A stretch of 64,000 nt of DNA, taken from contig JBAYIU010000001.1 of NCBI GenBank assembly GCA_041665465.1, positions 1,081,733 to 1,145,732 of the forward strand, written 5' to 3'. The position numbers and the translations under genes are program-made. Positions within the stretch are counted from its first letter, which is position 1, and every line of letters begins with the position of its first letter. Origin of the DNA: Candidatus Woesearchaeota archaeon. Its GTDB lineage: Archaea > Nanobdellota > Nanobdellia > Woesearchaeales > GW2011-AR9. This document shows positions 4,744 through 58,543 of this stretch, piece by piece. A model generated the notes under the pieces. That model was not told the origin of the DNA. It saw only the letters and a list, made by a program, of their open reading frames with translations, and searched no databases.

Positions 4744-6942
4744 ATGGCAAGTGAAAAGATGATCGATAAGGTCACCAGGATTACTCAAGATCCTAGATAT
4801 ATCCGAAATATTTGTACCAGTGCTCATATTCATCATGGTAAAACGGCTTTTACCGATAATTTGTTAGCGGCTGCTGGTCAGATGGCTTCTAAATATGCCG
4901 GAGATCTAGAACACGGTATGGAGACCTGGCAACATAAAGACGAACAAGAGAGATTAATGACTGTTGATTCCGCTAACGTTTCTATGGTTCATGAGTTTGG
5001 CGGTCATGAATATTTAATTAATTTGATTGATACTCCCGGTCACGTTGATTTTGGGGGAAACGTTACTAGAGCAATGAGAGCTGTTGATGGTACCGTTGTC
5101 TTGATTTGTGCAGTTGAGGGGGTAATGCCTCAAACTGAAACAGTAGTCAGACAAGCTTTGCGTGAAAGAGTTAAACCCGTATTATTCATTAATAAGATGG
5201 ATCGTTTAGTCAAAGAATTAAAACTTTCCCCTGATAAAATTGCAGAAAGAGTTCTGCTTTTAACTAAACAGTTCAATGATATGATTGAAAGAATTGCCGA
5301 ACCCCAATATAGAGAAAGCTGGAAAGTTAGTGTTCCTGATGGAAGTATGGCTTTTGGTTCTGCTCGTGAAAACTGGGCTCTGTCCTTTCCTTACATGAAT
5401 AAAAAAGGGATCAAGTTTGCAGACATCTTAAAAATTTATGAGATGGAAGAAGAAGAAAGAAAAGCGTGGGTGTGGGCTAATGCTCCTTTAAATGAAGTTA
5501 TTTTAGATATGATTATCAAGCATCATCCAGATCCACTTGATGCTCAGAAGTACAGAATTCCCAAGATCTGGCACGGAGACCCAGAGTCACAGTTTGGTAA
5601 GGATTTAATCAATTGTAACCCCAACGGTAAATTAGGTTTTGTTATTACTAGAATTGTGGTAGACCCAAAGTCAGGTAAGGATATTTCTGCAGGAAGATTG
5701 TTCAGTGGAACGGTTAGAAGCGGAATGGAAGTATATTTGAACAATACTAAGCAAAGACAAAGAGTTCAAAACGTCTATATTTATAACGGTATCAAGCCAG
5801 AGATTATGGAATTTTTGCCTGCTGGTAATGTTTTAGCTATTTCTGGAGTAGTTGGAAATGCTGGTGAAACCGTGACTATAGATGAAGAGCAGCCTTTTGA
5901 AGAATTGAAACATATCTTTGAACCGGTTATTACTAAAGCTATCGAACCTAAGAGACAAGGTGATTTGCCAAAGCTAGTTGAAGTTCTTAGAAAAGTTTCC
6001 CGAGAAGATCCTTCAGTTAAGATCGAGATTAATGAAGAAACCGGCCAGAACTTAATGCATGGTATGGGAGAACTGCACTTAGAGATTATTGAAAACAGAA
6101 TCGTTACCGAGAAAGGGGTCGAAATTAAAACTTCTCCACCTATTGTTGTTTATCGTGAAGCGATTACTAAAGCTTCTCCGGAAGTGGAAGGTAAATCTCC
6201 TAACAAGCACAACAAGCTCTATTTCAAAGTTGAACCTTTAGAACCAGAGATTATAGCAGCAGCTAAAGAAGGTAGGATTAACTCCGGCAGATACAGAAAG
6301 AAAGATGACCAGTTAATTGCTTTCTTGAGAGAAGAGTGTGGATGGGATGCTAAAACTGCAACTCAAGTCAAAGAGATTTACAATGGCAATATGATCATGG
6401 ATGTAACTAGGGGACAAGTTCACATTGGAGAGATTATGGAACTAGTACTTGACATGTTTGTAGATGTTATGAAACAAGGTCCTTTAGCTCGTGAACCCTG
6501 TATGGGTGTAAAAGTTATGTTAATGGACTGTACTTTGCATGAAGATGCTATCCATCGTGGTCCAGCGCAAATGTATCCCGCAATCAGAGAAGGTATCAGA
6601 GGAGCAATGATGCAGGCTGGTCCGATCATGTTTGAACCATTGCAAGTAACTAGAATCGAAGCTCCACATGATAATTTAGGAGAAGTATCTAAGTTAGTAA
6701 CTTCTAAACGTGGTCAATTGTTAGACGTGTTGCAAGAAGGAGATCAAACTGTAGTTATAGCTAAGTTGCCTGTTGCTGAAATGATAGGATGGAGCAGTGA
6801 TTTAAGGTCAGCTACTGGAGGTAGAGGAACTTCTTCTTTAGTTGATCAAAGCTTTGAAAAATTACCTTACGAATTAGCTGAGAAGGTTAGACAGCAGATC
6901 ATGCAGAGAAAAGGATTAACTGACGCTCAATTAGGGGCTTAA
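4744..6942 (+). CDS. fusA: Elongation factor 2 (aEF-2)
   Basis: 732 aa with G-domain motifs AHIHHGKT, LIDTPGHVDF and NKMDR. Diphthamide-region motif HEDAIHRGPAQ. Confidence 0.9.
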   Translation: MASEKMIDKVTRITQDPRYIRNICTSAHIHHGKTAFTDNLLAAAGQMASKYAGDLEHGMETWQHKDEQERLMTVDSANVSMVHEFGGHEYLINLIDTPGHVDFGGNVTRAMRAVDGTVVLICAVEGVMPQTETVVRQALRERVKPVLFINKMDRLVKELKLSPDKIAERVLLLTKQFNDMIERIAEPQYRESWKVSVPDGSMAFGSARENWALSFPYMNKKGIKFADILKIYEMEEEERKAWVWANAPLNEVILDMIIKHHPDPLDAQKYRIPKIWHGDPESQFGKDLINCNPNGKLGFVITRIVVDPKSGKDISAGRLFSGTVRSGMEVYLNNTKQRQRVQNVYIYNGIKPEIMEFLPAGNVLAISGVVGNAGETVTIDEEQPFEELKHIFEPVITKAIEPKRQGDLPKLVEVLRKVSREDPSVKIEINEETGQNLMHGMGELHLEIIENRIVTEKGVEIKTSPPIVVYREAITKASPEVEGKSPNKHNKLYFKVEPLEPEIIAAAKEGRINSGRYRKKDDQLIAFLREECGWDAKTATQVKEIYNGNMIMDVTRGQVHIGEIMELVLDMFVDVMKQGPLAREPCMGVKVMLMDCTLHEDAIHRGPAQMYPAIREGIRGAMMQAGPIMFEPLQVTRIEAPHDNLGEVSKLVTSKRGQLLDVLQEGDQTVVIAKLPVAEMIGWSSDLRSATGGRGTSSLVDQSFEKLPYELAEKVRQQIMQRKGLTDAQLGA

Positions 6943-6975
6943 GTTTATTTTTTTATTATATTTTTTCTTATTATT

Positions 6976-7950
6976 CTAATCAAACCATTCTGGAAAGAAA
7001 TCTAACTTCTTTTCTTCTACAATAATCACTGATTCGGTTTTCTTAATCAGTTCTGGGAAATCGTTTCTGATCTTATGGGTTAGTCCATAAAAGTCTTGTA
7101 ATGTTTCCGTCTCTATTTCCAATTCCATTTCCCACGGCCCGAGAGATTCGATAACATGAATCACATTAGGAAGTTCCATGCAGTAGTTAATAAATCGGTC
7201 AATCTCGTGTTCATAATTCTTCAAATAAAGACATAATTTGAAAAAATTGTATCCTATCTTTTGTGGATCAATAAACGTCACATAACCTTGAATAACTCCT
7301 TTCTTCTCTAGGTCTTTGATTCTACGTTGAGCAGTTTTAATATTCATTTTAAACTCTTTGACTAAGTCCATATAATTGAAGCGAGCGTAATTGGAGATAA
7401 ACCTCATGATAGACTTCTCTTCTTCAGATAAATCTACTTTGTCTTCATTCATAAACTTCTTAACTTTCTTTAGAACTGCTCCTTTTTTATTAATTAAATA
7501 TGTTCTGGGAGAAGTATGTCCTTCTGATAAAAACACTATATCATAATTGGTAATAAATCTTTCAAACTTGTTAAAGAAGTCTTTCTTCACAGAAGTAAAC
7601 TGATTCATGTTCTCTACATACGCACCAATCATCAAGTCCCAGCTTCCTTCACACTTGGCTACCCAAGAGATTCTTTGATCTTTCTGTAGGTAAGCATAAA
7701 ACTCTTTCTCTTCTTCTGGCGTGAATCCGGAAAGTTGGAAGTAAATCTTTCCTAAAAATAGTCCTAATCTGGCTAGTGAGGGTTGAACTACAAACTTCTT
7801 GATGACTCCTTCTTTAAGGAGTTGATTAACGTGATATTGGACATTATTCTTTCCAATACCTAACTTTTGTCCAATCTTAGAGAAACTCTCTCTAGCATTG
7901 GTGTCTAACTCTAATAAGATCTTGCGGTCAATCTTGTCTAATTTGGGCAT
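6976..7950 (-). CDS. Lrp/AsnC-family transcriptional regulator, tandem two-domain form
   Basis: Two repeats of an HTH_AsnC plus RAM-like unit (DRKILLELDTNARESFSKIGQKLGI; ...IMRFISNYARFNYMDLVKEF). 324 aa. Confidence 0.7.
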   Translation of the reverse strand: MPKLDKIDRKILLELDTNARESFSKIGQKLGIGKNNVQYHVNQLLKEGVIKKFVVQPSLARLGLFLGKIYFQLSGFTPEEEKEFYAYLQKDQRISWVAKCEGSWDLMIGAYVENMNQFTSVKKDFFNKFERFITNYDIVFLSEGHTSPRTYLINKKGAVLKKVKKFMNEDKVDLSEEEKSIMRFISNYARFNYMDLVKEFKMNIKTAQRRIKDLEKKGVIQGYVTFIDPQKIGYNFFKLCLYLKNYEHEIDRFINYCMELPNVIHVIESLGPWEMELEIETETLQDFYGLTHKIRNDFPELIKKTESVIIVEEKKLDFFPEWFD

Positions 7951-20575: not shown

Positions 20576-21489
20576 GAAAAGTTTATTGCAAATAATGGCA
20601 CAGTAGTAAGATAAATCGTTCGAGCTAACTCTCCACAATAATATAAAATTAGGTTTTCTTCCCCTTTTGATTTTTTAAGAAGAAGAAATATTTCCCCATA
20701 AAGGAGATGTTTATTATTGTCATTTACTTGTTCTATTATCTTAAGATCTTTCTTTGAAAAACCTTCATATAGTAGTTCAAAACTGGCTTTAATCTCGGTA
20801 AATAATTTCAAGGTGCTGTTAGAAAAAACTGGCTTATTCTTTCCTTGCATTACTTCGTAAAGATGCAATAAACTATGTTGTGTTAGCAACAATCGTGTGT
20901 ATAATTCCCAGTAGGAGTTTATTCTCTCTTCTACAAATCTTCTTTTGGAGATATTTCTATTGCAAAAGTTAGAGTAACGATCAACATTTTTACTATTTTG
21001 TATTAAATGAGACAAATGAGAAAAATCCTTGTTCTTAAAATCGTTTTCTAATTGCTCAAAAGAGTTCTTAATAATTAGAAAGATTCGGCGCAGAAGTACT
21101 TCTTGCTTCTCCTCACTTGGTTCAGTTACGTTTTCCAAGATTAAGTAATTGGGGCTTTCTTCCACAATTTCAAACCCTAACAATCTTGCTTCTACTGTGT
21201 TCTTAATCAAATTTTTCTGTTTAGGGATGTTAAAAAATACTTTTATTCGGTCAAAGCCAGTACGATAAAGGACATTCAGATTACTGCGAATAATCTGTTC
21301 ACTTTCAGTAGATATCTTTAGGACAGAACTCTTCTTCTCACCTTTTGATTCGGTGCTGATGATAACTTTATTTTCTATTTCTTCTATATCTACTTCTTTT
21401 CCTGCCTTCAATCCGTTGAGTTTGGTCCATTTAGCGGGAAGAGTTAAAGTTAAAGCGTTATCCCCCTGCTTGATCAGTTTTCTACGCAT
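20560..21489 (-). CDS. AbrB-N/PhoU-like regulator (paralog 2 of 4)
   Basis: MRRKLIKQGDNALTLTLPAKWTKLNGLKAGKEVDIE at the N-terminus. Aligns with the other three paralogs. Confidence 0.65.
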   Translation of the reverse strand: MRRKLIKQGDNALTLTLPAKWTKLNGLKAGKEVDIEEIENKVIISTESKGEKKSSVLKISTESEQIIRSNLNVLYRTGFDRIKVFFNIPKQKNLIKNTVEARLLGFEIVEESPNYLILENVTEPSEEKQEVLLRRIFLIIKNSFEQLENDFKNKDFSHLSHLIQNSKNVDRYSNFCNRNISKRRFVEERINSYWELYTRLLLTQHSLLHLYEVMQGKNKPVFSNSTLKLFTEIKASFELLYEGFSKKDLKIIEQVNDNNKHLLYGEIFLLLKKSKGEENLILYYCGELARTIYLTTVPLFAINFSQTNS

Positions 21490-21528
21490 ATGTATTGAAT
21501 GTGGGGGTTTATTTTTAAACTTTTCTTA

Positions 21529-48195: not shown

Positions 48196-49224
48196 ATGGA
48201 ACGGGTTATTCTTAAAACATTAAATAAGAATCTTGGCTATAAACCAGGAGAAAGAGTTCTGATTATTCAGCAAAACTGGAGCAAAGGATTAAGTAAAGAA
48301 ACCAAATCCCGATTTGAACTTTCTAAGAAAGTGTGCCAGAAAATGTTTCAAGTGTATAAGAAAGTCAAAGTAGATGTTTCTTTGTTAACTTACTTTCCTA
48401 AAGAAGCTCGTTCAGGAGTAGATGTACCGAAAGGAACTTACACTTCTGTCCTGAAAGATGTTCCTGAAATTATCTTTATGCCCACTGCTTATTCTCTGTC
48501 TCATGTTCCTTCCACTAAACTATTACTTAAGAAAGGAGCACGTATTGCTAGCATGCCTAGTTTCACTTTAGATATGTTTGCAGAGAATGGGCCGATGAGT
48601 GCTAATCCTTTAGATGTTGGAAGAAGAGGAGAAAAAATTTATCAAAAGTATAAGAAGAGTAACTTTATTCATATCACTGGCAAGAAAACAGATATCGTTG
48701 TTGAAGTGGATCCTTCTATCGTGCATCACGCAGAAACGGGAATTATTAAGAAAGGAGACTTAGCTAATTTGCCAGCAGGAGAAGTATGCGGGGTTCCTAA
48801 ACATTTAGGAAAATCTCATGGGTATATCACTGTGCCAAAAGGATGGGGTGGACCTTTTCCTTTGAAGTATGAAATTACTCTAATCGCTAAGAATGGTCGA
48901 TTTGTAAATATTCTGAATGATGATCCAAAAGCTAAAGAGTATATTAATTCTAAACTTAAACCGTTAATTTTCGGCAAGAAGGGATTTGATGTCTTAGCAG
49001 AGTTAGGTATAGGTACAAATCACAAAATCACTCCTCAATATATCCAAAAGCATGGGTGGAGTGCTCTTACCGCAGAAAAGATTATCGGATCAGCCCATTT
49101 CGCTAACGGTTGCAGTGCTGGATTAGGTGGAAAGAATGATGTGCCTGTGCATTTAGATTGGGTCGTTCCTAAGGTTAAGATTGACTTTGATTATAAAATA
49201 AAAAATAAAAAAGCAAAAGATTAA
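48196..49224 (+). CDS. Putative aminopeptidase (M29/AmpS-like)
   Basis: LAELGIGTNHKI resembles the M29 G-E-x-x-I-G-T-N motif. Weak. Confidence 0.4.
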   Translation: MERVILKTLNKNLGYKPGERVLIIQQNWSKGLSKETKSRFELSKKVCQKMFQVYKKVKVDVSLLTYFPKEARSGVDVPKGTYTSVLKDVPEIIFMPTAYSLSHVPSTKLLLKKGARIASMPSFTLDMFAENGPMSANPLDVGRRGEKIYQKYKKSNFIHITGKKTDIVVEVDPSIVHHAETGIIKKGDLANLPAGEVCGVPKHLGKSHGYITVPKGWGGPFPLKYEITLIAKNGRFVNILNDDPKAKEYINSKLKPLIFGKKGFDVLAELGIGTNHKITPQYIQKHGWSALTAEKIIGSAHFANGCSAGLGGKNDVPVHLDWVVPKVKIDFDYKIKNKKAKD

Positions 49225-50324
49225 ATTAACCTTTTGCTGGCCGTTCCGGGAGGAAGTTTTCTTAAAGATACTGCGTTTTGTCCTCCTAGTTGTTGCATCA
49301 CTTCTGGGCTGGGCAGTTCAATCAATCCTTTATCCTGTTTAACTTTTTGGAGGAAGATGTTGCTTAGGAACCTTAAGGAAGTGTAAGCACTCTCTATCGC
49401 TCCAAAACTCATATCTCCAATCCCAGTGATGCTCTTGGCATCATCTGCAGCAATACCTAAAAACTTAGTAGCAAAGTCTAACCCGCTTTTGTTAGCTTGG
49501 GCATCGTACTTTGACTTTACAGTTTGGAGATAGAAATGGCTAGTAACATGTATTACTCTTCCTTCTCCTACCGGGAATTTTACGGCGATGGGGGATTCTC
49601 CATACTTGTTTCCCATCTCTGCACTGCCTAGCAATATTTCTAGTCCTTCTTTTCTTAATGGTCTGATAGGATAACTGCTGCTTTCTAACCACCAGATGGG
49701 TTTTAATGCTCCATTACCCAATCCTTTGGTGTATGGGCTTCCGGAAGCTATTAGGTCTACTTCTACTAAATCGTCACTGGTATTATGTTTCCCTCTTTCC
49801 ACATGTCCGGGGAAAGCATTCATGATGACACTTTCTAAGGCCCAGTCGGTAGTTACTAAATATCCTCCTGCATTTACAAATGCTTGCAATGCTTCCGTTC
49901 CGGACTTTCCCCGATAGCGATAATCTAACGTTCTTCCTGGACAGTTAACTAACAAGATCTGTTTTGGATCTAGATTAGTATATCCGTTAGCGATCTTGTA
50001 TGGTATCCCTGCCGGACTTAGTACTTTTTCTACTGAATCATATTGTCCGGGGATGACCACAATTCGATCGTTGTCCAATTCTTTTAGTAAAGACTTTTCA
50101 TCTCCGGGCATGGCTGCATCTACCACTCTGGCTGACATCATGTAGGCAGATTTCATGTCTACTGATTTTTTTGGAGTTTCTGATTTCTTGCTTCCTCCAG
50201 ATTTAGATACATAGGCTTTGTCTGCATCATAGTTAGTGTATCCATTCTTAGCAGATCCGTAATCAAATCCACCATTACTTCCACTCCAACTAGCGCTTGT
50301 GTCGCTTCCCCAGCTGTAACTCAT
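49221..50324 (-). CDS. Hypothetical protein with an S/G-rich N-terminal tail, last gene of the kinase operon
   Basis: MSYSWGSDTSASWSGSNGGFDYGS... low-complexity N-terminus, then a globular domain (LLVNCPG...AFVNAGGYLVTTDWA) possibly with a class I glutamine-amidotransferase-like fold. Confidence 0.45.
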   Translation of the reverse strand: MSYSWGSDTSASWSGSNGGFDYGSAKNGYTNYDADKAYVSKSGGSKKSETPKKSVDMKSAYMMSARVVDAAMPGDEKSLLKELDNDRIVVIPGQYDSVEKVLSPAGIPYKIANGYTNLDPKQILLVNCPGRTLDYRYRGKSGTEALQAFVNAGGYLVTTDWALESVIMNAFPGHVERGKHNTSDDLVEVDLIASGSPYTKGLGNGALKPIWWLESSSYPIRPLRKEGLEILLGSAEMGNKYGESPIAVKFPVGEGRVIHVTSHFYLQTVKSKYDAQANKSGLDFATKFLGIAADDAKSITGIGDMSFGAIESAYTSLRFLSNIFLQKVKQDKGLIELPSPEVMQQLGGQNAVSLRKLPPGTASKRLI

Positions 50325-50326
50325 GT

Positions 50327-51391
50327 TTATCCTCCCCCATCATATTTTTTTGTTCGTTTAAACATCGATTCCCAAATTTTTCTCTTGGGCTGATAGTCAT
50401 TATCTATGGCTTGAAGAAGGTTCAAAGCAGAAAACAAAGCTTCTTCTTTAAAACAAAGGTCGTCGCCCACCATTATTCTCTTATATCCTATCTCGCGAAG
50501 ATATCCTATATCTGTAATATCTGAGCAATCTGGGACGTATCCCTGTTTCAATGAACCAAGAATACGAGATGCGGCGATAGCTCGTGGATCCGCGTCTACA
50601 ATTTGTCTGGTGGCTTGCAAGATCTGGTGCGGTTTTCCTACTTCTACATACAAGTCTCCTCTAGCAGCCATCAGTCTAACTCTGCTTCTCCAGTCTTGGT
50701 AATCATTAGTTACAAATTCTAATCCTGGTTGAGATTCAATTTTCGCTACCGGTCTAGCTAAAGGATCTCTTTCTAGCAAATCACTTAAATCAGAACTTTT
50801 TTCCACGTAAGAAAGCATATAATCATGCATTCCTACTTTCTTTGCTGCTTCGATATATTCTAAATCTCTTGGTGTAAAGTATCCTTTGATTTTTAAACTG
50901 GGATGAAGAATGTTGATCGATTCTCCTCCTCCCACCACTCTTTGTGGTCCATCTAACATGATTAACTTGTTTCCATCAACTTTCACAATGTAAGCAGATT
51001 GATGTCCATCGTTGAAATAACATTTTACTGGTTTAGAAGTGTCCAACTCAATCTCATGGTCGATCTCTATTACTGACCAGGGTGGTGTTCTTAATTGTCC
51101 ATAAGATTTTGGATTTGAGGGGTCTAAAACTATTTTCTTCCCATCAACTTCAATGATGGTTGGTTCTTTCGGTGAGTCATAAAATTCTCCTCGGTTTATC
51201 CTGATTTGTCGACACTTTAAATCGATCCATACCGGTTTATCTCCGGCACAGTCTTTTATTCTAAGAAGTGCATCTTCTAAACTTTCTTTTAGGGGCATAA
51301 CTGTGTTTAATCTAAATCCCTCGACAATAGGGTGTTCAGCGATACTTTTTAGATAAGGTGCATATGGTGGTATGGTTACAATTGCTTTCAT
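50327..51391 (-). CDS. Pyruvate-kinase-like TIM-barrel protein lacking the C-terminal PK domain
   Basis: KIESQPGLEFVTNDYQDW...RLMAARGDLYVEVG matches the PK signature KIEN.EG...MVARGDLG.E. At 354 aa it is about 100 aa shorter than a canonical PK. Confidence 0.55.
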   Translation of the reverse strand: MKAIVTIPPYAPYLKSIAEHPIVEGFRLNTVMPLKESLEDALLRIKDCAGDKPVWIDLKCRQIRINRGEFYDSPKEPTIIEVDGKKIVLDPSNPKSYGQLRTPPWSVIEIDHEIELDTSKPVKCYFNDGHQSAYIVKVDGNKLIMLDGPQRVVGGGESINILHPSLKIKGYFTPRDLEYIEAAKKVGMHDYMLSYVEKSSDLSDLLERDPLARPVAKIESQPGLEFVTNDYQDWRSRVRLMAARGDLYVEVGKPHQILQATRQIVDADPRAIAASRILGSLKQGYVPDCSDITDIGYLREIGYKRIMVGDDLCFKEEALFSALNLLQAIDNDYQPKRKIWESMFKRTKKYDGGG

Positions 51392-51407
51392 GGTTTACCT
51401 CCGTTAT

Positions 51408-52397
51408 TTATACTTCTAATTTTTTGTTCGATTCTCTTCTACCAAAAACTTTCATTCTCACGTCTGAGAATTCTTTTACTAAGTCATGACCTTCCCAACT
51501 ATTACGTAAAAGGGGATTGGGATTAAGGAAAGTTTCAAAATATTCTCTAATTGGTTGAGGTACATTCTTTGGGAATTTTTTAGCTAAAGGGTTTCCTCCA
51601 AAAGCGTACATCATAGTTAAGGCTAAAGAATAAAGATCAGTTGATGGAAGTGGTGGCCTTAACTCTACTAGTTCTGGGGCTGCAAATGCTTCGGTGTATC
51701 CTTCTGCTCTACTTTTATGTTTAGGTCTTAAACTGGCGAAACCATAATCTACTAATACGGCATTATGTTCCTCAGGTTTGATGATAATATTGTTTGGTTT
51801 GACATCGCAATGAATTACTCCATTAAAGTGCAAATAATGTAGAGCGTTTAGTAAACGTTGAGTTATCCATGATGCATGTTCTGGGTCAATCGGGCCATGT
51901 TCTCGCACAATCTTTTCTAATGTTGGTCCGGGAACATAGCTCATCGCAAAGATATAACTCCCATCATCGGCATGAAAAAAGTCTCTTAAAGTGGGTAAAG
52001 AATAATGATTGATGTTCCAAAGTAATTTTGCTTCATGAGCCATGATCAAAGAGTCATCAGGAGACACGTGCAAGTTTTGTTTCAAACAAGCAAGTTCTTC
52101 TAACAAAACATGTTTAGCTTTGTAAGTTACTCCAAACCCTCCTTCAGCAATCTTTTCTAAAACTTGATAATTTCCGATAACTCTCTCTTGAGGGAATATC
52201 TTTTGGTCATACTTTTTTCTTTTTTCTTCATCACACAATACTTCCCTAGCTTCATTCAATAACTTGGCAACGTTTTCATTGCCTAGTCCTTTGTCGGGAT
52301 GATATTTGGTCATTAAGACCCGATAGGCCGCTTCTATTACTCCTGTTCTTGCCCCCGGGCTAACTTCTAAAACATGATAATAGTTTGGGTTTGCCAT
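51408..52397 (-). CDS. J-domain (DnaJ N-terminal) fused to a Hanks-type Ser/Thr protein kinase
   Basis: YYHVLEVSPGARTGVIEAAYRVLMTKYHPDKG (HPD motif), then GGFGVTYKAKH (Gly loop), HCDVKPNNIII (catalytic loop), DYGFAS (DFG-like) and APE. Confidence 0.7.
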   Translation of the reverse strand: MANPNYYHVLEVSPGARTGVIEAAYRVLMTKYHPDKGLGNENVAKLLNEAREVLCDEEKRKKYDQKIFPQERVIGNYQVLEKIAEGGFGVTYKAKHVLLEELACLKQNLHVSPDDSLIMAHEAKLLWNINHYSLPTLRDFFHADDGSYIFAMSYVPGPTLEKIVREHGPIDPEHASWITQRLLNALHYLHFNGVIHCDVKPNNIIIKPEEHNAVLVDYGFASLRPKHKSRAEGYTEAFAAPELVELRPPLPSTDLYSLALTMMYAFGGNPLAKKFPKNVPQPIREYFETFLNPNPLLRNSWEGHDLVKEFSDVRMKVFGRRESNKKLEV

Positions 52398-53432: not shown

Positions 53433-53493
53433 TTACTATCGGGTAGTCAAGAGTTAGAAAGTTTTATAAAAGGGCATTTGTCTTGATAATCTT

Positions 53494-54627
53494 ATGTCCG
53501 ATCTCAGTAATTTAGAACGAGAATTGCTTAAGAGGCCGTTAGTTATTCCTAAAAACGATTGGGAAGAAGCAACTATCTCTTTGGGTGGAGACGAATTACT
53601 GGCTTTTTTTCTTAATGCTGGATTTACGGGTGTTTCAAGTGTGTTGGGGTTAGGGAACTTAGCTACTGCCCTTTCTGGACCAGTGGGAGAAAAATTTATT
53701 TTCTTGGGAAGGCAATCTTATCGAGCACTACAGTTAAGGAAGGAAACTCCAAAAGGTTTACGTCAACCTACTCTAGCTTATCTAAAAGAAGGGGTAAAGG
53801 AAGGAGTAGAGAACCTGGTTTTAGATATTACTTTACATGATCCTACTTATACCGGATTGATGTATTATTTTTTAGAAAATCATTCTGATGTTTCTACTCT
53901 TCTGGCCTTACCTTTAAGTTTCGTTGCTGGGTTGGTGGTAGCTACAGTAGGAAAAGTTGGGTATAACAAAGGTAAGAAGTTATGGAACCAACATTCTCTT
54001 ACTCGAGCAGGTATGGAAAAAGAAGTGCTGTATGAAGTGAGATTTATCTTTCCTCAAGAAGTTACTCGAAGTCAATTAGAAGAAAATCTTTTCCCTGCAT
54101 TTGGTCTAGAACCCCAAGGAGAATTAGAATATCAAGATATCTATTTCCCTTGTAAGAGAGAAAGGACTAAGATCAGATTACGTGATCGTGATACTCCTCA
54201 AGGAGAAAGGATGAGATCAGCGCAAGTGGTATTAACTACTCCTGGAAGGGTGGGCGAAAAAGATCAACCTTGGAACTGTTATCCTTCTCGCAAGATTAAA
54301 TATTATCTCCCTTTATCGGACAAGATTTCAGATTTAGATGAAGTTCCTGACGAAAATGTGCGCAAAAAATTGCTTTCTTGGAAAGGAAGTGGCGAGAAAA
54401 AAGAAGTACGTTTTCGAAGAAGTTTTGCGCGAAACTCTGAGGGGCTCTTAATCGCTATGGATCAGGTATTTAATTCTCATCAACGTCCATTTTACGTGTT
54501 AGAAGCTAAGGTTTTCCCTAAAGACTTGGGTAAGTTGGTGGGAGTGACTCAGCATATAATGTATCATTATGCTCGTGCTTTAATGACAACCTATGGAAAA
54601 CATGATTTATCTGTCTTGAATAGTTAA
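53494..54627 (+). CDS. Membrane-anchored protein with a C-terminal CYTH-like (triphosphate tunnel metalloenzyme) domain
   Basis: N-terminal TM helices. The C-terminus has YEVRFIFP (ExExK-like start), ELEYQDIYFP (qxDxYFD motif), KIRLRDRD and a distal VLEAKV (EiE-like) strand pattern. TATA box at 53463-53472. Confidence 0.5.
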   Translation: MSDLSNLERELLKRPLVIPKNDWEEATISLGGDELLAFFLNAGFTGVSSVLGLGNLATALSGPVGEKFIFLGRQSYRALQLRKETPKGLRQPTLAYLKEGVKEGVENLVLDITLHDPTYTGLMYYFLENHSDVSTLLALPLSFVAGLVVATVGKVGYNKGKKLWNQHSLTRAGMEKEVLYEVRFIFPQEVTRSQLEENLFPAFGLEPQGELEYQDIYFPCKRERTKIRLRDRDTPQGERMRSAQVVLTTPGRVGEKDQPWNCYPSRKIKYYLPLSDKISDLDEVPDENVRKKLLSWKGSGEKKEVRFRRSFARNSEGLLIAMDQVFNSHQRPFYVLEAKVFPKDLGKLVGVTQHIMYHYARALMTTYGKHDLSVLNS

Positions 54628-54630
54628 GAA

Positions 54631-55104
54631 TTAACAGCTTCTAATATTTTCTAAAATCGTTGCTTGTTCAGTACAAATTTGTTCTGCATCGTACAACACA
54701 ATCTTGGGAGTAATCTTAATTTGTTTAATCTTTCCACTAACTGATGAATCATAATTTAAGTGTCCTAAATAATTGCCTGCTTTAATCATCTTGGCATCAT
54801 TTAGTTCGTAAGATTCTGCTTTAACCTCACCAATAACACTAAACACTAATCCTTCTACTTTAATATTTACTCCATTTTCTAAAGTGAAAGCCACATCTTT
54901 CTTAGCTGAATCGTAACATAATTGTTCCTGTCCTCCAATTACTGCTAATTTTAATCCAATCTGTACCGGGCATTGGGCACTAGACTCTACTTCTGCTGCA
55001 CCAAAGTTCATCACTACTACCCCCACAGCTACCGCAAAAGAAATAAGTAATAAAGTGACCATTAAGGGAGTAACACCTTTCTTTTTATGTAAGTGATTAA
55101 CCAT
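54631..55104 (-). CDS. Putative archaeal type IV pilin-like protein (class III signal peptide)
   Basis: N-terminus KKKGVTPLMVTLLLISFAVAVGVVV is a basic stretch plus a hydrophobic helix, reminiscent of prepilin/archaellin signals. The rest is beta-rich. Confidence 0.4.
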   Translation of the reverse strand: MVNHLHKKKGVTPLMVTLLLISFAVAVGVVVMNFGAAEVESSAQCPVQIGLKLAVIGGQEQLCYDSAKKDVAFTLENGVNIKVEGLVFSVIGEVKAESYELNDAKMIKAGNYLGHLNYDSSVSGKIKQIKITPKIVLYDAEQICTEQATILENIRSC

Positions 55105-55558
55105 GTTTCCAGTAAGATTTTCCTTTACGTAAGATTTCTTTTACTCTGTGTATTGGTACAAAAATCTCTTTTCCTTCTTTCATCACGAATATCAAAAAAC
55201 CTTTTTCAATCTGTTTCAAATGTTTTACTTCATACAACAAATCTTTTTTTTGTAATCGGTCATGGAACTTAATATGGAATTCCTGTTTCTGTGGATGTTT
55301 ATGTATTGCGTGAAGAGCAGCACTTGTTTTTTGCTCTTCTAATTTTAATGGGTCAAATTCTTTTAAGATTAATCCCGAGGAGGCTAAGATAATTACCCCT
55401 GCAGCTAAACTAACTAAAGGGTTTTGAAGAAACCAGAGATTTCCTACTCCATCCCACAATCCTGCCCAGAATAAAACTATTCCTATCACTCCAATCATAG
55501 CCCAAAAGTAATGTCTTAAATTTTCTGTAGTTAATTGGATCATCTTCATAGCCTCCAA
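55097..55558 (-). CDS. Hypothetical 2-TM membrane protein, tandem paralog 1
   Basis: Shares with 55546-55986 a 2-TM N-terminus, the KEFDPL motif, H..HP.K..F.I.(Y/F)HD and a C-terminal E(I/V)F(V/I)P(I/L)HR(I/V).E(I/V)...GK(S/T)YW. Confidence 0.45.
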   Translation of the reverse strand: MEAMKMIQLTTENLRHYFWAMIGVIGIVLFWAGLWDGVGNLWFLQNPLVSLAAGVIILASSGLILKEFDPLKLEEQKTSAALHAIHKHPQKQEFHIKFHDRLQKKDLLYEVKHLKQIEKGFLIFVMKEGKEIFVPIHRVKEILRKGKSYWKHG

Positions 55559-55986
55559 TAGGTCTTTCCTTTATACATTACTTCGTTGATACGGTGTAAA
55601 GGGATGAACACTTCTTGTCCATTATTCTCATGTTCTACTACCAAACTTCCTCGTTCAACATGTTTTATCCGTTCTGCTCTAACTATAACATCTTTCTTTA
55701 GAATTTTGTCATGATAATGAATCTCAAATAGGTTCTTATGAGGGTGACCAGTGATAAAATGAGCTACACGATTGGTTGATTTATCTAAACTGCCTAGAGG
55801 ATCAAATTCTTTAAAGATTATCCCGGAAAAGGTAAGTATAGCAAATCCTACAAATAAAGCAACCCATTCATTTCCGATAGCAGGGATTTCGTACCATCCT
55901 TCCCATAACCCTTTCCATACCAGGATAACTCCTAGAGCTGCAGTCAAAGACCATAAAAAATGTTTATCTTGTTCTCTCAGTATCAT
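55546..55986 (-). CDS. Hypothetical 2-TM membrane protein, tandem paralog 2
   Basis: See the previous entry. Overlapping start and stop imply an operon with the pilin-like gene. Confidence 0.45.
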   Translation of the reverse strand: MILREQDKHFLWSLTAALGVILVWKGLWEGWYEIPAIGNEWVALFVGFAILTFSGIIFKEFDPLGSLDKSTNRVAHFITGHPHKNLFEIHYHDKILKKDVIVRAERIKHVERGSLVVEHENNGQEVFIPLHRINEVMYKGKTYWRL

Positions 55987-56572: not shown

Positions 56573-57358
56573 TTGGGAGATTTAACTATGGCAGAAAAAA
56601 AAGAACTGGGAGAAGTATTAGGAATTGTTAGTCCCGAATTACCTTATTCTTACTTTATATCTCAAAATCAAGTTATCACTGCGGAAGTGGATATCTTGGG
56701 TTTTGTTTTAACGGATATTCTTGCAGGATTGCTTCCTTCATATCAATCCAGAGCTGCTGAATTAAGAGCTCCTTTTTATACTCGTTTGGCTCAGATTCAA
56801 AGTGATGGTCCAAGAATGGAAGATGTGCCTATTTTTTTAGATTTAGTCAAATCTTCAGTATCTAATAAAATTAAGGAATGGAGCGAAGACCACCCTCAAG
56901 AGATGAAAGAGATAAAAGTAAGGCATCCCTATATTCTTGGCATTTCTAATGCCCGAGCCGATTATTTGTTTTTTGATTTCTTGAATCAGTATGTTTTGTC
57001 CGATCTATCTCTCGAAAGACAAACGGAATTATTTAATTGGGCATCCTCACAAGTAAGTTCTTCTGACTGCTTTGGTATGTGGAAAAACTTGAAAGGAATG
57101 TTAACTGAACTCGAATCAGAATTAGCTCATCGAAAATATCATCGATGGGTGGATCGAGAAGATGTAAAAAGAGAAAAAGGTCGTACTTTTGAATATTCTG
57201 GTGGAGGAAACCGAGTCGAATACTTCGCTCACTTTGCAGCAGTTAGTGGTTTAGATTATCATGGATTTGATTTTGGGGCAAGACCAAAAGGCCATAGTGA
57301 TTTAGGCCACCACCAATTTAATGTGATTATGCATAAGATTCCGTTATTTGAGAGATGA
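56573..57358 (+). CDS. Hypothetical protein (261 aa)
   Basis: ORF translationally coupled (ATGA) to the next gene. Confidence 0.4.
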   Translation: MGDLTMAEKKELGEVLGIVSPELPYSYFISQNQVITAEVDILGFVLTDILAGLLPSYQSRAAELRAPFYTRLAQIQSDGPRMEDVPIFLDLVKSSVSNKIKEWSEDHPQEMKEIKVRHPYILGISNARADYLFFDFLNQYVLSDLSLERQTELFNWASSQVSSSDCFGMWKNLKGMLTELESELAHRKYHRWVDREDVKREKGRTFEYSGGGNRVEYFAHFAAVSGLDYHGFDFGARPKGHSDLGHHQFNVIMHKIPLFER

Positions 57359-57897
57359 ACATGAATGTTACAGAACTGCCCATAATCGGAGGAATTAAAG
57401 AATTATCCCCCTTAGAAGCAGAGCTGTTAGATCAACCTCAACCAGAAACTTCTCTTCTTGGAAAAGTAGCAAATGCTTATTATTCTCCTAAATGTTTTGA
57501 ACAACATGGTAGGCTCTATGAAAGATTAGGAATAAGGTATTTTAAAGAAAAGTTGATGCAACTTCGAAGGAAAGTCCCTTACTCATCTGTAGGAGTACAA
57601 TACGGGAATAATTATTTTATTGGTCAAGAAGATCGTAATGTTGTTTCATTACAAAAATTTGAATCTGAAACAAGATATAATGAATTTGTTCACGCTCTAG
57701 TACAAGGGGGACTAGTAGCACATATGGGACTTTCCTTAATTGCAGATAGTCCTGATACTCTAGTAGTGAGTTTACCTCTTTTCATTGTAAATGGATATAT
57801 CTTGATGACACAAAGATGGAACCGAAACAGAGTTTACAATACTCTCGATGTGTTAAGAGAACAATATCATCAAACAATTACTAAAGGGGTAGCATAA
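57355..57897 (+). CDS. Hypothetical protein (180 aa)
   Basis: ORF directly followed by the endonuclease V gene. Confidence 0.4.
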   Translation: MNMNVTELPIIGGIKELSPLEAELLDQPQPETSLLGKVANAYYSPKCFEQHGRLYERLGIRYFKEKLMQLRRKVPYSSVGVQYGNNYFIGQEDRNVVSLQKFESETRYNEFVHALVQGGLVAHMGLSLIADSPDTLVVSLPLFIVNGYILMTQRWNRNRVYNTLDVLREQYHQTITKGVA

Positions 57898-57898
57898 G

Positions 57899-58543
57899 AT
57901 GGACACTTTAGAACTACGTCGAGAACAACAGAGATTAGCTTCTAAGATAGTTCTACGTGACGGATTCGAAGAAATAAAAACTATTGCTGGAATTGATACT
58001 CAGATTGTAGGAAATAAACTTCTAGCTTGTGTAGTGGTGTGTGAATATCCTTCTTTAAAGGTGATTGAATCTCAGACTTATACTTTAAACAGTCCTCTGC
58101 CTTACAAGCCGGGATTTCAAGCATACAGAGAAATGCCGGCTATGATCGAAGCTTACAATAAACTAAGCCAAGAAGCAGATGTAATCCTAGTGAAGGGAGA
58201 AGGAATATTACATCCTCGAAGGATGGGGGTGGCTTCACATCTGGGATTAAGTTTGAATCAAGCCACTATTGGTATAAGTGCTAGTTTAACTTTAGGGAAG
58301 GTTAACGAAGGAAAGATAATTTATGATAATGAAGTATGTGGTTTTGAGATAGTTACTCGGGAACATGCTAATCCAGTGTACATCTCACCTGGCCATTTAA
58401 TCACTTTAGGGTCAGCGTTAGAACTAGTTACTAAGACTTTACGTTATCCGCACAAGATGCCAGAACCTTTACATTTAGTTCATAAGATTCTTAGAAGAAA
58501 TATCAAAGAAGAAGGTTTTCCTAACGTTGAAGAAAAGAAATAA
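57899..58543 (+). CDS. nfi: Endonuclease V (deoxyinosine 3' endonuclease)
   Basis: GIDTQIVGNKLLACVVV...PYKPGFQAYREMP...GEGILHPRRMGVASHLG...TIGISAS matches the Nfi signature. Confidence 0.8.
   Translation: MDTLELRREQQRLASKIVLRDGFEEIKTIAGIDTQIVGNKLLACVVVCEYPSLKVIESQTYTLNSPLPYKPGFQAYREMPAMIEAYNKLSQEADVILVKGEGILHPRRMGVASHLGLSLNQATIGISASLTLGKVNEGKIIYDNEVCGFEIVTREHANPVYISPGHLITLGSALELVTKTLRYPHKMPEPLHLVHKILRRNIKEEGFPNVEEKK

Follow-up and report, generated by a model that had tools for sequence, protein, structure and literature searches.

The triphosphate tunnel (TTM/CYTH) fold is well studied as a hydrolase, a cyclase, and a polymerase (eukaryotic VTC), and the activity class of a member can be read from its acidic patch. 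In E. coli YgiF, E160 is the glutamate of metal site 1, which is invariant in all TTMs and bridges metal and triphosphate, E4, E6, and E162 constitute metal site 2, where the attacking water or, in cyclases, the 3'-OH is activated, and R56 probably serves as proton donor (Martinez et al. 2015, PMC4641920). Mutations of site 2 abolish hydrolysis in both AtTTM3 and YgiF (PMC4641920), and a role in water placement is ascribed to the DxY motif (PMC8233210). The polyphosphate (polyP) polymerase Vtc4p is without the acidic patch, and basic residues there lead the polyP chain away (PMC4641920). We analyzed a stretch of 64,000 nucleotides (the window) from contig JBAYIU010000001.1 of a Candidatus Woesearchaeota archaeon, in which the gene at positions 53494-54627 encodes a protein of 377 amino acids (aa). 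This protein is predicted to join a four-helix membrane domain to a CYTH tunnel domain whose metal site 2 is altered, and it belongs to a family that has this architecture throughout (Table 1).

The product of the gene is identical to a 'hypothetical' protein of a Candidatus Woesearchaeota metagenome-assembled genome (MAG) at NCBI, and three orthologues were found at 82, 75, and 71% identity. The ratio of nonsynonymous to synonymous substitution rates (dN/dS) against two of the orthologues was ~0.08-0.12 in the N-terminal and C-terminal halves alike. The MAG match, the orthologues, and the low dN/dS indicate that the gene is protein-coding and under purifying selection. Scans of the 377-aa protein with Pfam, NCBIfam, and PADLOC gave nothing relevant, and a PDB search with this single sequence returned noise only. 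The initial annotation had recognized a CYTH-like region of 200 aa at the C terminus from ordered strand motifs, all of which are in place (EVRFIFP at residues 181-187, QDIYFP at 214-219, IRLRDRD at 227-233, RFRR at 306-309, and LEAKV at 336-340), and its assignment was borne out by structure comparison. The fold matches comprised PH1012 (16.1), E. coli YgiF (15.6), plant TTM3-like (15.0), PH1819 (14.1), YpAC-IV (12.4), ThTPase (11.5), and Vtc2/3/4 (9-10.7), and Foldseek with an earlier AlphaFold2 model agreed, giving E ~1e-6 to HpAC1, AtTTM3, PH1819, and ThTPase. In the proposed check against Pfam CYTH (PF01928), the window protein gave no match even at E ≤ 0.1, but 16/61 relatives matched, the best at E 6.7e-6. 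The best PDB sequence match of the family profile was the CYTH protein PH1819 (2een), in register but at E 0.15. The model shows the eight-stranded antiparallel β-barrel tunnel with flanking helices that is typical of the CYTH/TTM fold, with strands at residues 175-186, 206-218, 225-233, 239-250, 265-274, 303-313, 318-326, and 333-340. The assignment of the C-terminal ~200 aa as a CYTH/TTM tunnel domain is thus supported.

To place the active-site residues, the register was taken from an hhalign alignment with YgiF, whose E-value of 0.087 is not significant alone, although all motifs are in register, and in β1 it agrees with the Pfam CYTH match of the family protein P0121, the start of which is at position 4 of the profile. 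Residue frequencies were counted over ~190 family sequences. The site-1 glutamate is retained, as E337 corresponds to YgiF E160, and so is the RxR pair, in which R228 corresponds to the catalytic R56 and R230 to the phosphate-binding R58. K267/K269, R309, D323, and K369 are also essentially invariant, and since the invariant residues are in phase on each strand, they would line the tunnel. The equipment for binding a metal-oligophosphate, comprising E337, R228/R230, R183, K267/K269, R309, D323, and DxY, is kept. Metal site 2 is different. Two of its three glutamates are replaced family-wide, by Tyr or Phe at position 179 and by Lys at 339, the equivalent of YgiF E162, a glutamate that TTM hydrolases and ThTPases require. 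Position 177, on the same strand face as E181, is Glu or Asp in 181/197 sequences. The ExExK motif, the conservation of which had been suggested as a check, therefore fails in part: its first Glu is Leu in the window protein and Tyr or Phe in the family, the second is kept, and the second Glu of the β8 ExE is Lys. Since these site-2 glutamates are replaced, the activities listed in the initial annotation for CYTH enzymes, hydrolysis of tri- or polyphosphate and class IV adenylyl cyclase, are not the default expectation. Judged by the motif criteria of the SaTTM study (PMC8233210), the tunnel is not that of a canonical two-metal TTM hydrolase.

Compared with CYTH-proper TTMs (YgiF, PH1012/PH1819, plant TTM3, SaTTM; PF01928), the family has in common the site-1 Glu, RxR with the catalytic Arg, the basic residue of β1, DxY, and the C-terminal helices. 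It differs in that their E4 is replaced by Tyr, Phe, or Leu, their E162 by Lys, and the Lys of ExExK by Arg, and in that those proteins are soluble or fused to CHAD, whereas here a conserved four-helix membrane domain is fused at the N terminus. The nearest precedents for the degenerate acidic patch are AtTTM1/2, which are membrane-anchored pyrophosphatases, and Vtc4p. Arabidopsis TTM1 and TTM2 are likewise membrane-associated TTMs with degenerate ExExK and ExE and with RxR and DxY kept (PMC8233210); however, they are tail-anchored by one C-terminal helix and carry an N-terminal uridine-kinase-like domain and W/YxRxR, in contrast to the conserved four-helix domain and the K226 before RxR in the window protein. 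Thiamine triphosphatase was also considered and rejected by the criteria of PMC8233210, as W/YxRxR is absent; the residue two before R228 is K226 in the window protein and Lys, Gln, or Val in the family.

AlphaFold2 with an alignment of 61 sequences yielded a model with a predicted local distance difference test score (pLDDT) of 92.6 and a predicted template modelling score (pTM) of 0.87, which indicates that the relative placement of the two domains is confident. It superseded a model from only four close sequences, in which the N-terminal half was poor (pLDDT 56.7). The N-terminal domain consists of helices at residues 22-51, 55-84, 93-129, and 135-171, with hydrophobic cores at ~30-51, 56-75, 105-129, and 136-157, of which that of helix 4 is the strongest in family-mean hydropathy. 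The loops 52-55 and 130-135 contain on average 0.4 and 0.03 Lys plus Arg per sequence, and the segments 76-104 and 158-174 contain 6.8 and 4.6. Transmembrane (TM) helices had been annotated here, and the four long helices, the hydropathy, and the Lys/Arg distribution fit four membrane spans. Because of this positive-inside pattern, the N terminus and the tunnel are expected to be cytoplasmic; membrane insertion was deduced from hydropathy and the positive-inside rule. In the peptide preceding helix 1, P15, I16, and P19 are conserved at ≥77-98% (61 sequences).

The membrane domain is no less conserved than the tunnel, the mean frequency of the top residue being 0.49 versus 0.455. Its charged residues are near-invariant down to ~25% identity, bacterial members included; besides the motifs in helices 2 and 3 listed in Table 1, D33/E34 are part of a near-invariant polar cluster, E34 being present in 161/172 sequences. 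The acidic/His motif of helix 3 would lie at the level of the cytoplasmic leaflet. This conservation, the near-invariant charged residues, and the equally low dN/dS in both halves indicate that the domain is more than a simple anchor. The protein that had been described as membrane-tethered is thus membrane-embedded, but a mere tether does not describe it. No Pfam, NCBIfam, or PADLOC model covers the membrane domain and no match was found among solved PDB structures. Identification with CHAD, DUF202/VTC, DgkA, or PsiE was rejected for want of profile matches. Helix 4 leads into β1 through a linker of three residues, and positions 177, 179, and 181 are at the N-terminal end of β1 in the model. 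Because of this connection, the site-2 end of the tunnel is expected near the membrane domain and probably abuts its cytoplasmic face.

An exhaustive profile search found 170 cluster representatives at E ≤ 1e-3, of which 46 were at E ≤ 1e-30, when clusters were counted at 50% identity. Nearly all of the 170 are 370-420 aa long and aligned end to end. The two domains always occur together, in a fixed architecture across the family, and no informative alternative fusion was found in it, the matches of odd length (P0083, P0035, P0123, P0121, and others) being fragments or carrying unannotated extensions. The hosts, for which organism labels of MAGs (e.g., 'uncultured Methanosarcinales') were used as written, are mainly DPANN archaea, together with some bacteria of the candidate phyla radiation (CPR; Harrisonbacteria, Saccharibacteria, Paceibacter) and of the Planctomycetes-Verrucomicrobia-Chlamydiae (PVC) type (Phycisphaerae, Sedimentisphaerales, Pontiellaceae, Lentisphaeria, Erginobacter); one further bacterial member is in a Micavibrio MAG. 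When 185,579 species genomes were searched with a hand-built degenerate DNA pattern derived from the membrane-domain motifs alone (G62-P63-x2-E66-K67 ... D111-x3-H115-D116-P117-x-Y119), 43 loci were retrieved, and all of them encode true family members (E 1e-54 to 1e-160). An NCBIfam scan of 61 relatives gave no matches, no family model for proteins of the four-helix-plus-CYTH type exists in Pfam, NCBIfam, or PADLOC, and no description of a membrane-fused CYTH protein of the four-helix type or of a CYTH immune effector was found in the searchable literature. The fold is an established one, but neither the architecture nor the systematic substitution at site 2 nor the conserved membrane domain is known.

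The window protein and its orthologues form a clade of four members, a divergent sub-branch of which the closest outside relatives are ~36% identical. This clade departs from the family consensus at residues 22, 69, 74, 82, 126, 131, 134, 136, 159, 179, 223, 249, 259, 353, and 364, including changes at otherwise conserved sites such as Y179L, E159K, G69I, H74Q, R223E, and Q259P, and every invariant residue is kept.

In the PVC-type branch, the genomic context was immune- or conflict-like at 9/9 loci examined, often with the genes on the same strand and gaps of <60 nt (Table 1). The neighbours belong to the NUDIX, TIR or DUF4062-STAND, RyR, RelA_SpoT, HD-CE, and CHAT families and include a giant protein with a RyR domain. 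PADLOC-DB 2.0 had no match for the window protein or three bacterial members, and the NUDIX, TIR, and RyR neighbours match the PADLOC candidates PDC-S07 (NUDIX), PDC-S66, ThsB-like, and PDC-S33. The PVC loci thus look like an undescribed immune-type cassette. HD-domain neighbours were considered as partners and set aside, the one that was checked being a CCA-adding enzyme. Nucleotide-responsive membrane effectors of prokaryotic immune systems (see PMC7159879) include SLATT/S-4TM-type proteins, the TM-Macro ThsA of type II Thoeris, and the CorA- or CARF-TM proteins of type III CRISPR. They likewise combine a small multi-TM part with a cytoplasmic ligand-binding domain, and the PVC-bacterial members of the present family stand beside TIR, NUDIX, RelA_SpoT, RyR, and STAND genes. 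The present family differs from them in that a CYTH tunnel would act as the sensor, conservation of the TM domain is unusually high, and archaeal members have no defence context. The family has no matches to the Pfam S-4TM/SLATT or PADLOC models.

We tentatively propose that the family has a ligand-coupled function, either ion- or metal-conducting or membrane-perturbing. According to this proposal, the tunnel would bind an Mg/Mn-complexed oligophosphate at the intact site 1, and the additional basic residue at the site-2 end would favour a ligand longer or more anionic than tripolyphosphate (PPPi). Candidate ligands would be polyP and hyperphosphorylated nucleotides that are (p)ppGpp/(p)ppApp-like or ApnA-like; such a ligand would agree with the bacterial neighbours of the RelA/SpoT, NUDIX, HD, and His-phosphatase types. 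The tunnel would work neither in the manner of a standard two-metal triphosphatase nor as a class IV adenylyl cyclase. Since its site-2 end would adjoin the membrane domain, occupancy by the ligand or slow turnover could be coupled to, or completed by, the acidic/His cluster of that domain, and the most likely outcomes would be the conduction of cations or metals under control of the ligand, or a perturbation of the membrane. Within the immune-type clusters of bacteria, the protein would thereby act as a membrane effector that responds to a signal. A more specific version is rather unlikely as a whole: a hitherto unrecognized class of ligand-gated membrane devices in which the tunnel, having lost its water-activating metal site, is a receptor for an oligophosphate or hyperphosphorylated nucleotide, or a slow-turnover timer, and opens or drives an acidic/His path for cations or metals, serving PVC bacteria as effector of NUDIX/TIR/RyR/RelA-SpoT immune cassettes and DPANN and CPR episymbionts as a stand-alone switch for stress or phosphate status.

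Several points weigh against a conducting or membrane-perturbing function. In immune effectors that form pores, TM segments are as a rule poorly conserved. The archaeal majority of the family, the window included, is in ordinary variable neighbourhoods without defence enrichment, and the effector role may be limited to the bacterial branch. The retained R228, DxY, and E181 and the mostly conserved E177 would be equally expected if the enzyme were active and site 2 modified, and AtTTM1/2 act as pyrophosphatases although ExExK and ExE are absent from them (PMC8233210). Membrane insertion is a prediction from hydropathy and the positive-inside rule, the polar cluster would be near the tunnel mouth by connectivity only, and activity, ligand binding, and conductance are all predictions for the family.

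A possible but somewhat unlikely alternative is that the protein is a membrane-bound phosphohydrolase acting on PPPi, short polyP, pyrophosphate (PPi), or nucleoside triphosphates at the cytoplasmic face. It would work either by a one-metal or altered mechanism (E177/E181 plus K339) or with a composite site 2 completed by Asp, His, or Glu of the membrane domain, which would localise the reaction or deliver or receive a membrane-associated substrate, e.g., a lipid-linked pyrophosphate. The near-invariance of the site-1 Glu, R228, DxY, D323, and all basic tunnel residues is consistent with catalysis, as are the acidic residue at position 177 on the face of E181 and the probable position of the acidic/His cluster next to the site-2 end of β1. 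The closest folds are bona fide triphosphatases (YgiF, TTM3 type), and AtTTM1/2 are membrane-anchored pyrophosphatases in spite of missing ExExK and ExE (PMC8233210). However, essentially every one of the ~190 members has other residues at two of the three glutamate positions of site 2, and mutations at the same site abolish hydrolysis in AtTTM3 and YgiF (PMC4641920). Moreover, the loss of Tyr179 (Leu) in the window clade argues against a catalytic role for this residue, and no association with lipid or glycan genes was found among 143 neighbours (up to two genes on either side at 41 further loci).

The initial annotation placed the gene in a phosphate or nucleotide signalling node, based on a PhoU-like regulator directly upstream and a kinase operon opposite. 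The regulator is indeed adjacent, 61 bp away and on the same strand, but it is not PhoU proper: its N-terminal DNA-binding domain of the AbrB/MazE type scored 29.5 bits against MazE_antitoxin (cut-off 24.7), a single PhoU stretch scored 21.7 bits (PF01895; cut-off 23.5), and the score against TIGR02135 was 15.5 bits (cut-off 130.25). By these scores, it is a PhoU-domain-like protein of the transcription-factor type and not a PhoU equivalog. A second AbrB-PhoU-like paralogue is encoded in the window at 20929-21495 on the minus strand (29% identity over 189 aa), which indicates that such regulators are multi-copy in the genome. The order in the window and in the loci of two orthologues (L001, L004) is the kinase operon on the minus strand, the PhoU-like gene, the family member, and convergent pilin-like and TM-MJ1316 genes. 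At the locus of the 75%-identical orthologue (L002), the member is between two secreted-protein-like genes without a PhoU-like gene. Elsewhere, a PhoU-like gene precedes members in L014 (gap of 12 nt) and L036 (115 nt) and is at +2 in L027, these members being only 28-30% identical to the window protein. In total, PhoU-like genes flank the member in ~4/40 lineages, and ~90% of loci do not have the arrangement. No conserved partner was found among the 143 neighbours, which contain 157 Pfam families, the commonest three times, and no defence enrichment was found around archaeal members.

The gene probably has its own archaeal promoter, AGAAAGTTTTATAAAA, giving a short-leader or leaderless mRNA. 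The core is AGAAAGTTTTATAAA in the window and L001, AGAAAATCTTATAAA in L004, and GGAAAGATTTATA in L002, and a AGAAAGTTTTATAAA-like element is 25-28 nt upstream of the ATG in all four. The TATA element of the window is at 53463-53471, and transcription would start ~25 nt downstream of it. An obligate operon with the PhoU-like gene was rejected in view of this conserved TATA element, the different context in L002, and the lack of a conserved neighbourhood. The gene in the window archaeon would be expressed from its own promoter and be regulated at most by the AbrB-PhoU-like protein. The latter is a possible regulator of the gene, and a regulatory link is possible in a subset of lineages; it is not a family property.

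It is accordingly improbable that the gene is the phosphate-signalling output of a PhoU-centred node with the PhoU-like protein and the DnaJ-kinase operon, an explanation compatible with the others. Within the window clade, the nearest gene upstream is the PhoU-like one, in the same orientation, and the arrangement recurs with two members of ~29-30% identity (L014 and L036), with L027 having a PhoU-like gene at +2; three of the four occurrences are at position -1, for which a crude chance estimate is ~0.01, and TTM substrates are phosphate-rich. On the other hand, the absence from most loci, even that of the 75%-identical orthologue, where the promoter is kept, does not support a node, and the overall frequency of the multi-copy AbrB-PhoU-like genes near the member does not exceed the background rate. 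The neighbour is not a true PhoU, with a single sub-threshold repeat, and the member has its own TATA-like element. Finally, a divergent kinase operon is present, but it is divergent from the PhoU-like gene and not from the gene in question, and its conservation is restricted to the close clade.

A prokaryotic analogue of VTC, which would transfer the γ-phosphate of ATP onto a polyP chain threaded through an oligomeric channel of the four-helix domain, is more improbable still. Yeast Vtc4p likewise couples a TTM tunnel to a membrane domain, has basic residues in place of the acidic patch, and binds Mn-triphosphate by a single site-1 Glu, as would site 1 here; in the family, judged from the YgiF register, the patch is largely gone, since E181 is the only site-2 acid kept and Lys has replaced one of the other two. 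The site-1 Glu and basic residues are retained, and the site-2 (exit) end would face the membrane domain. Nevertheless, the membrane domain is N-terminal, so that the domain order is reversed, and its four acidic/His-rich helices are unrelated to the 3-TM VTC/DUF202 domain. Pfam SPX, VTC, and DUF202 had no match in the window protein or 61 relatives. Acidic residues predominate among those conserved in the membrane domain, in contrast to the strongly electropositive pathway of VTC, and E181 of the acidic patch is not lost. The hosts are prokaryotes without a vacuole, and we know of no rationale for polyP export from the cell. Least probable of all, a membrane-anchored class IV (CyaB-type) adenylyl cyclase making cyclic AMP on a signal sensed by the membrane domain would agree with the absent second Glu of ExE and with the family F174, which is seven residues before E181 as in the HF spacing of class IV enzymes, but CyaB and YpAC-IV have HF and ExA, whereas the His of HF is Gly here (G-F in the family, G173-M174 in the window protein), β8 has ExK, ExExK is without its first Glu, and the gatekeeper R228, which opposes the cyclase binding mode, is kept (criteria from PMC8233210).

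Table 1. Features of the membrane-CYTH gene and its surroundings in the window, and bacterial loci of the family (coordinates of loci refer to the locus named).
Feature	Location	Strand	Basis or content
Membrane plus tunnel gene	53494..54627	+	complete open reading frame, ATG start, 377 aa plus stop
Conserved N-terminal peptide	53530..53562	+	residues 13-23; window KRPLVIPKNDW; family consensus P-I-x-L-P-x-N-P-F
Four-helix membrane domain	53557..54006	+	residues 22-171
E66-K67 in helix 2, GPxxEK motif	53689..53694	+	E66 176/180, K67 179/180
D111-x3-H115-D116-P117-x-Y119 in helix 3	53824..53850	+	D111 184/187, H115 179/187, D116 187/187, Y119 178/186
TTM/CYTH tunnel domain	54016..54624	+	residues 175-377, eight-stranded barrel plus C-terminal helices
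β1 E177-V-L179-Y-E181-V-R183-F, degenerate ExExK	54022..54045	+	YgiF alignment, family counts
L179 (YgiF E4), metal site 2			family Y 174, F 15, L 5, never E (197 sequences); L is the window clade
E181 (YgiF E6), metal site 2			194/197
R183 (YgiF K8), basic residue of ExExK			184/197
Y213-Q-D215-I-Y217, DxY motif on β2	54130..54144	+	D215 194/195, Y217 194/196
R228-L-R230-D-R232, RxR pair on β3	54175..54189	+	R228 190/194, R230 196/196
E337-A-K339 on β8	54502..54510	+	E337 190/190, K339 187/190
AbrB/MazE plus PhoU-like gene, 305 aa	52515..53432	+	61 bp upstream of 53494-54627
BRE/TATA-like element AGAAAGTTTTATAAAA	53456..53471	+	~23-38 nt upstream of ATG
Locus L032	1524-7499		RyR protein, NUDIX, member, TIR
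Locus L025	1-2869		start as in L032; ends at contig end
Locus L010	517-3302		member, Zn-ribbon-TIR
Locus L054	member 5001-6209		NUDIX / DUF4062-AAA_16-TPR / member / DUF4062-TPR / TPR-CHAT
Locus L055	member 5001-6197		RelA_SpoT-RyR / AAA-RyR / member / HD-CE / STAND
Locus L056	member 6001-7200		two DUF4062-STAND-TPR genes, then member (20-nt gap)
Locus L057	member 6001-7248		DUF4062-AAA_16-WD40 ... member ... RHS
Locus L058	member 6001-7218		LSDAT-RyR / AAA-RyR / His_Phos_1 / member ... TIR
P0167 contig			member; NUDIX-RelA_SpoT-RyR protein two genes away

The kinase operon (49221-52397, minus strand) consists of three genes and is conserved at the L001 and L004 loci. One product joins a DnaJ domain to a Ser/Thr protein kinase (Pkinase E 1.3e-33), another, of 354 aa, resembles the pyruvate kinase (PK) barrel (29.7 bits, slightly below the Pfam cut-off of 30), and the third, of 367 aa, is without family. 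At L014 (2-5525), the pair of PhoU-like gene and member is flanked by a bona fide pyruvate kinase gene (PK barrel E 4.9e-56) and a phosphoenolpyruvate-utilising-enzyme gene, the former echoing the PK-like gene near the corresponding pair of the window. A 354-aa RelA_SpoT protein resembling small alarmone synthetases is encoded in L002 (15317-16381, minus strand), on a Woesearchaeota contig, ~6 kb from the 75%-identical orthologue.

Downstream of the gene, a convergent gene on the minus strand (54631-55104, 3 bp past the stop) encodes a 157-aa protein without a Pfam match, the N terminus of which (KKGVTPLMVTLLLISFAVAVGVVVM) resembles an archaeal type IV pilin / class III signal peptide. It is followed by tandem overlapping paralogues on the minus strand (55097-55558 and 55546-55986), which are syntenic in L001 and L004 and whose products apparently have two N-terminal hydrophobic helices and an MJ1316 'RNA cyclic-end recognition' domain. 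The MJ1316 domains scored 27.8 and 28.7 bits in Pfam, barely over the cut-off, and a membrane-anchored MJ1316 domain is unusual. At 57355-58543 on the plus strand, a CrtO-like acyltransferase gene (Pfam E 6e-14) is separated by 1 bp from a second gene, the syntenic counterparts of which in L001 and L004 are annotated as Endonuclease V (PF04493); synteny of the pair with these two loci is partial.

Within the TTM/CYTH superfamily, the present family is set apart by the permanent membrane fusion, the systematically rebuilt site 2, and the presence of one branch in immune-type islands. For annotation, the label of a PhoU-linked phosphate signalling node should not spread. If the protein is a membrane-bound polyphosphatase, it would still be a new architecture that deserves a family model. 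If it is a membrane effector responding to a signal, a phosphotransferase coupled to the membrane, or a device for polyP, the protein would represent a new functional class in the TTM superfamily and would provide a handle on oligophosphate and alarmone signalling in ultra-small episymbiotic archaea, a field that is almost blank.

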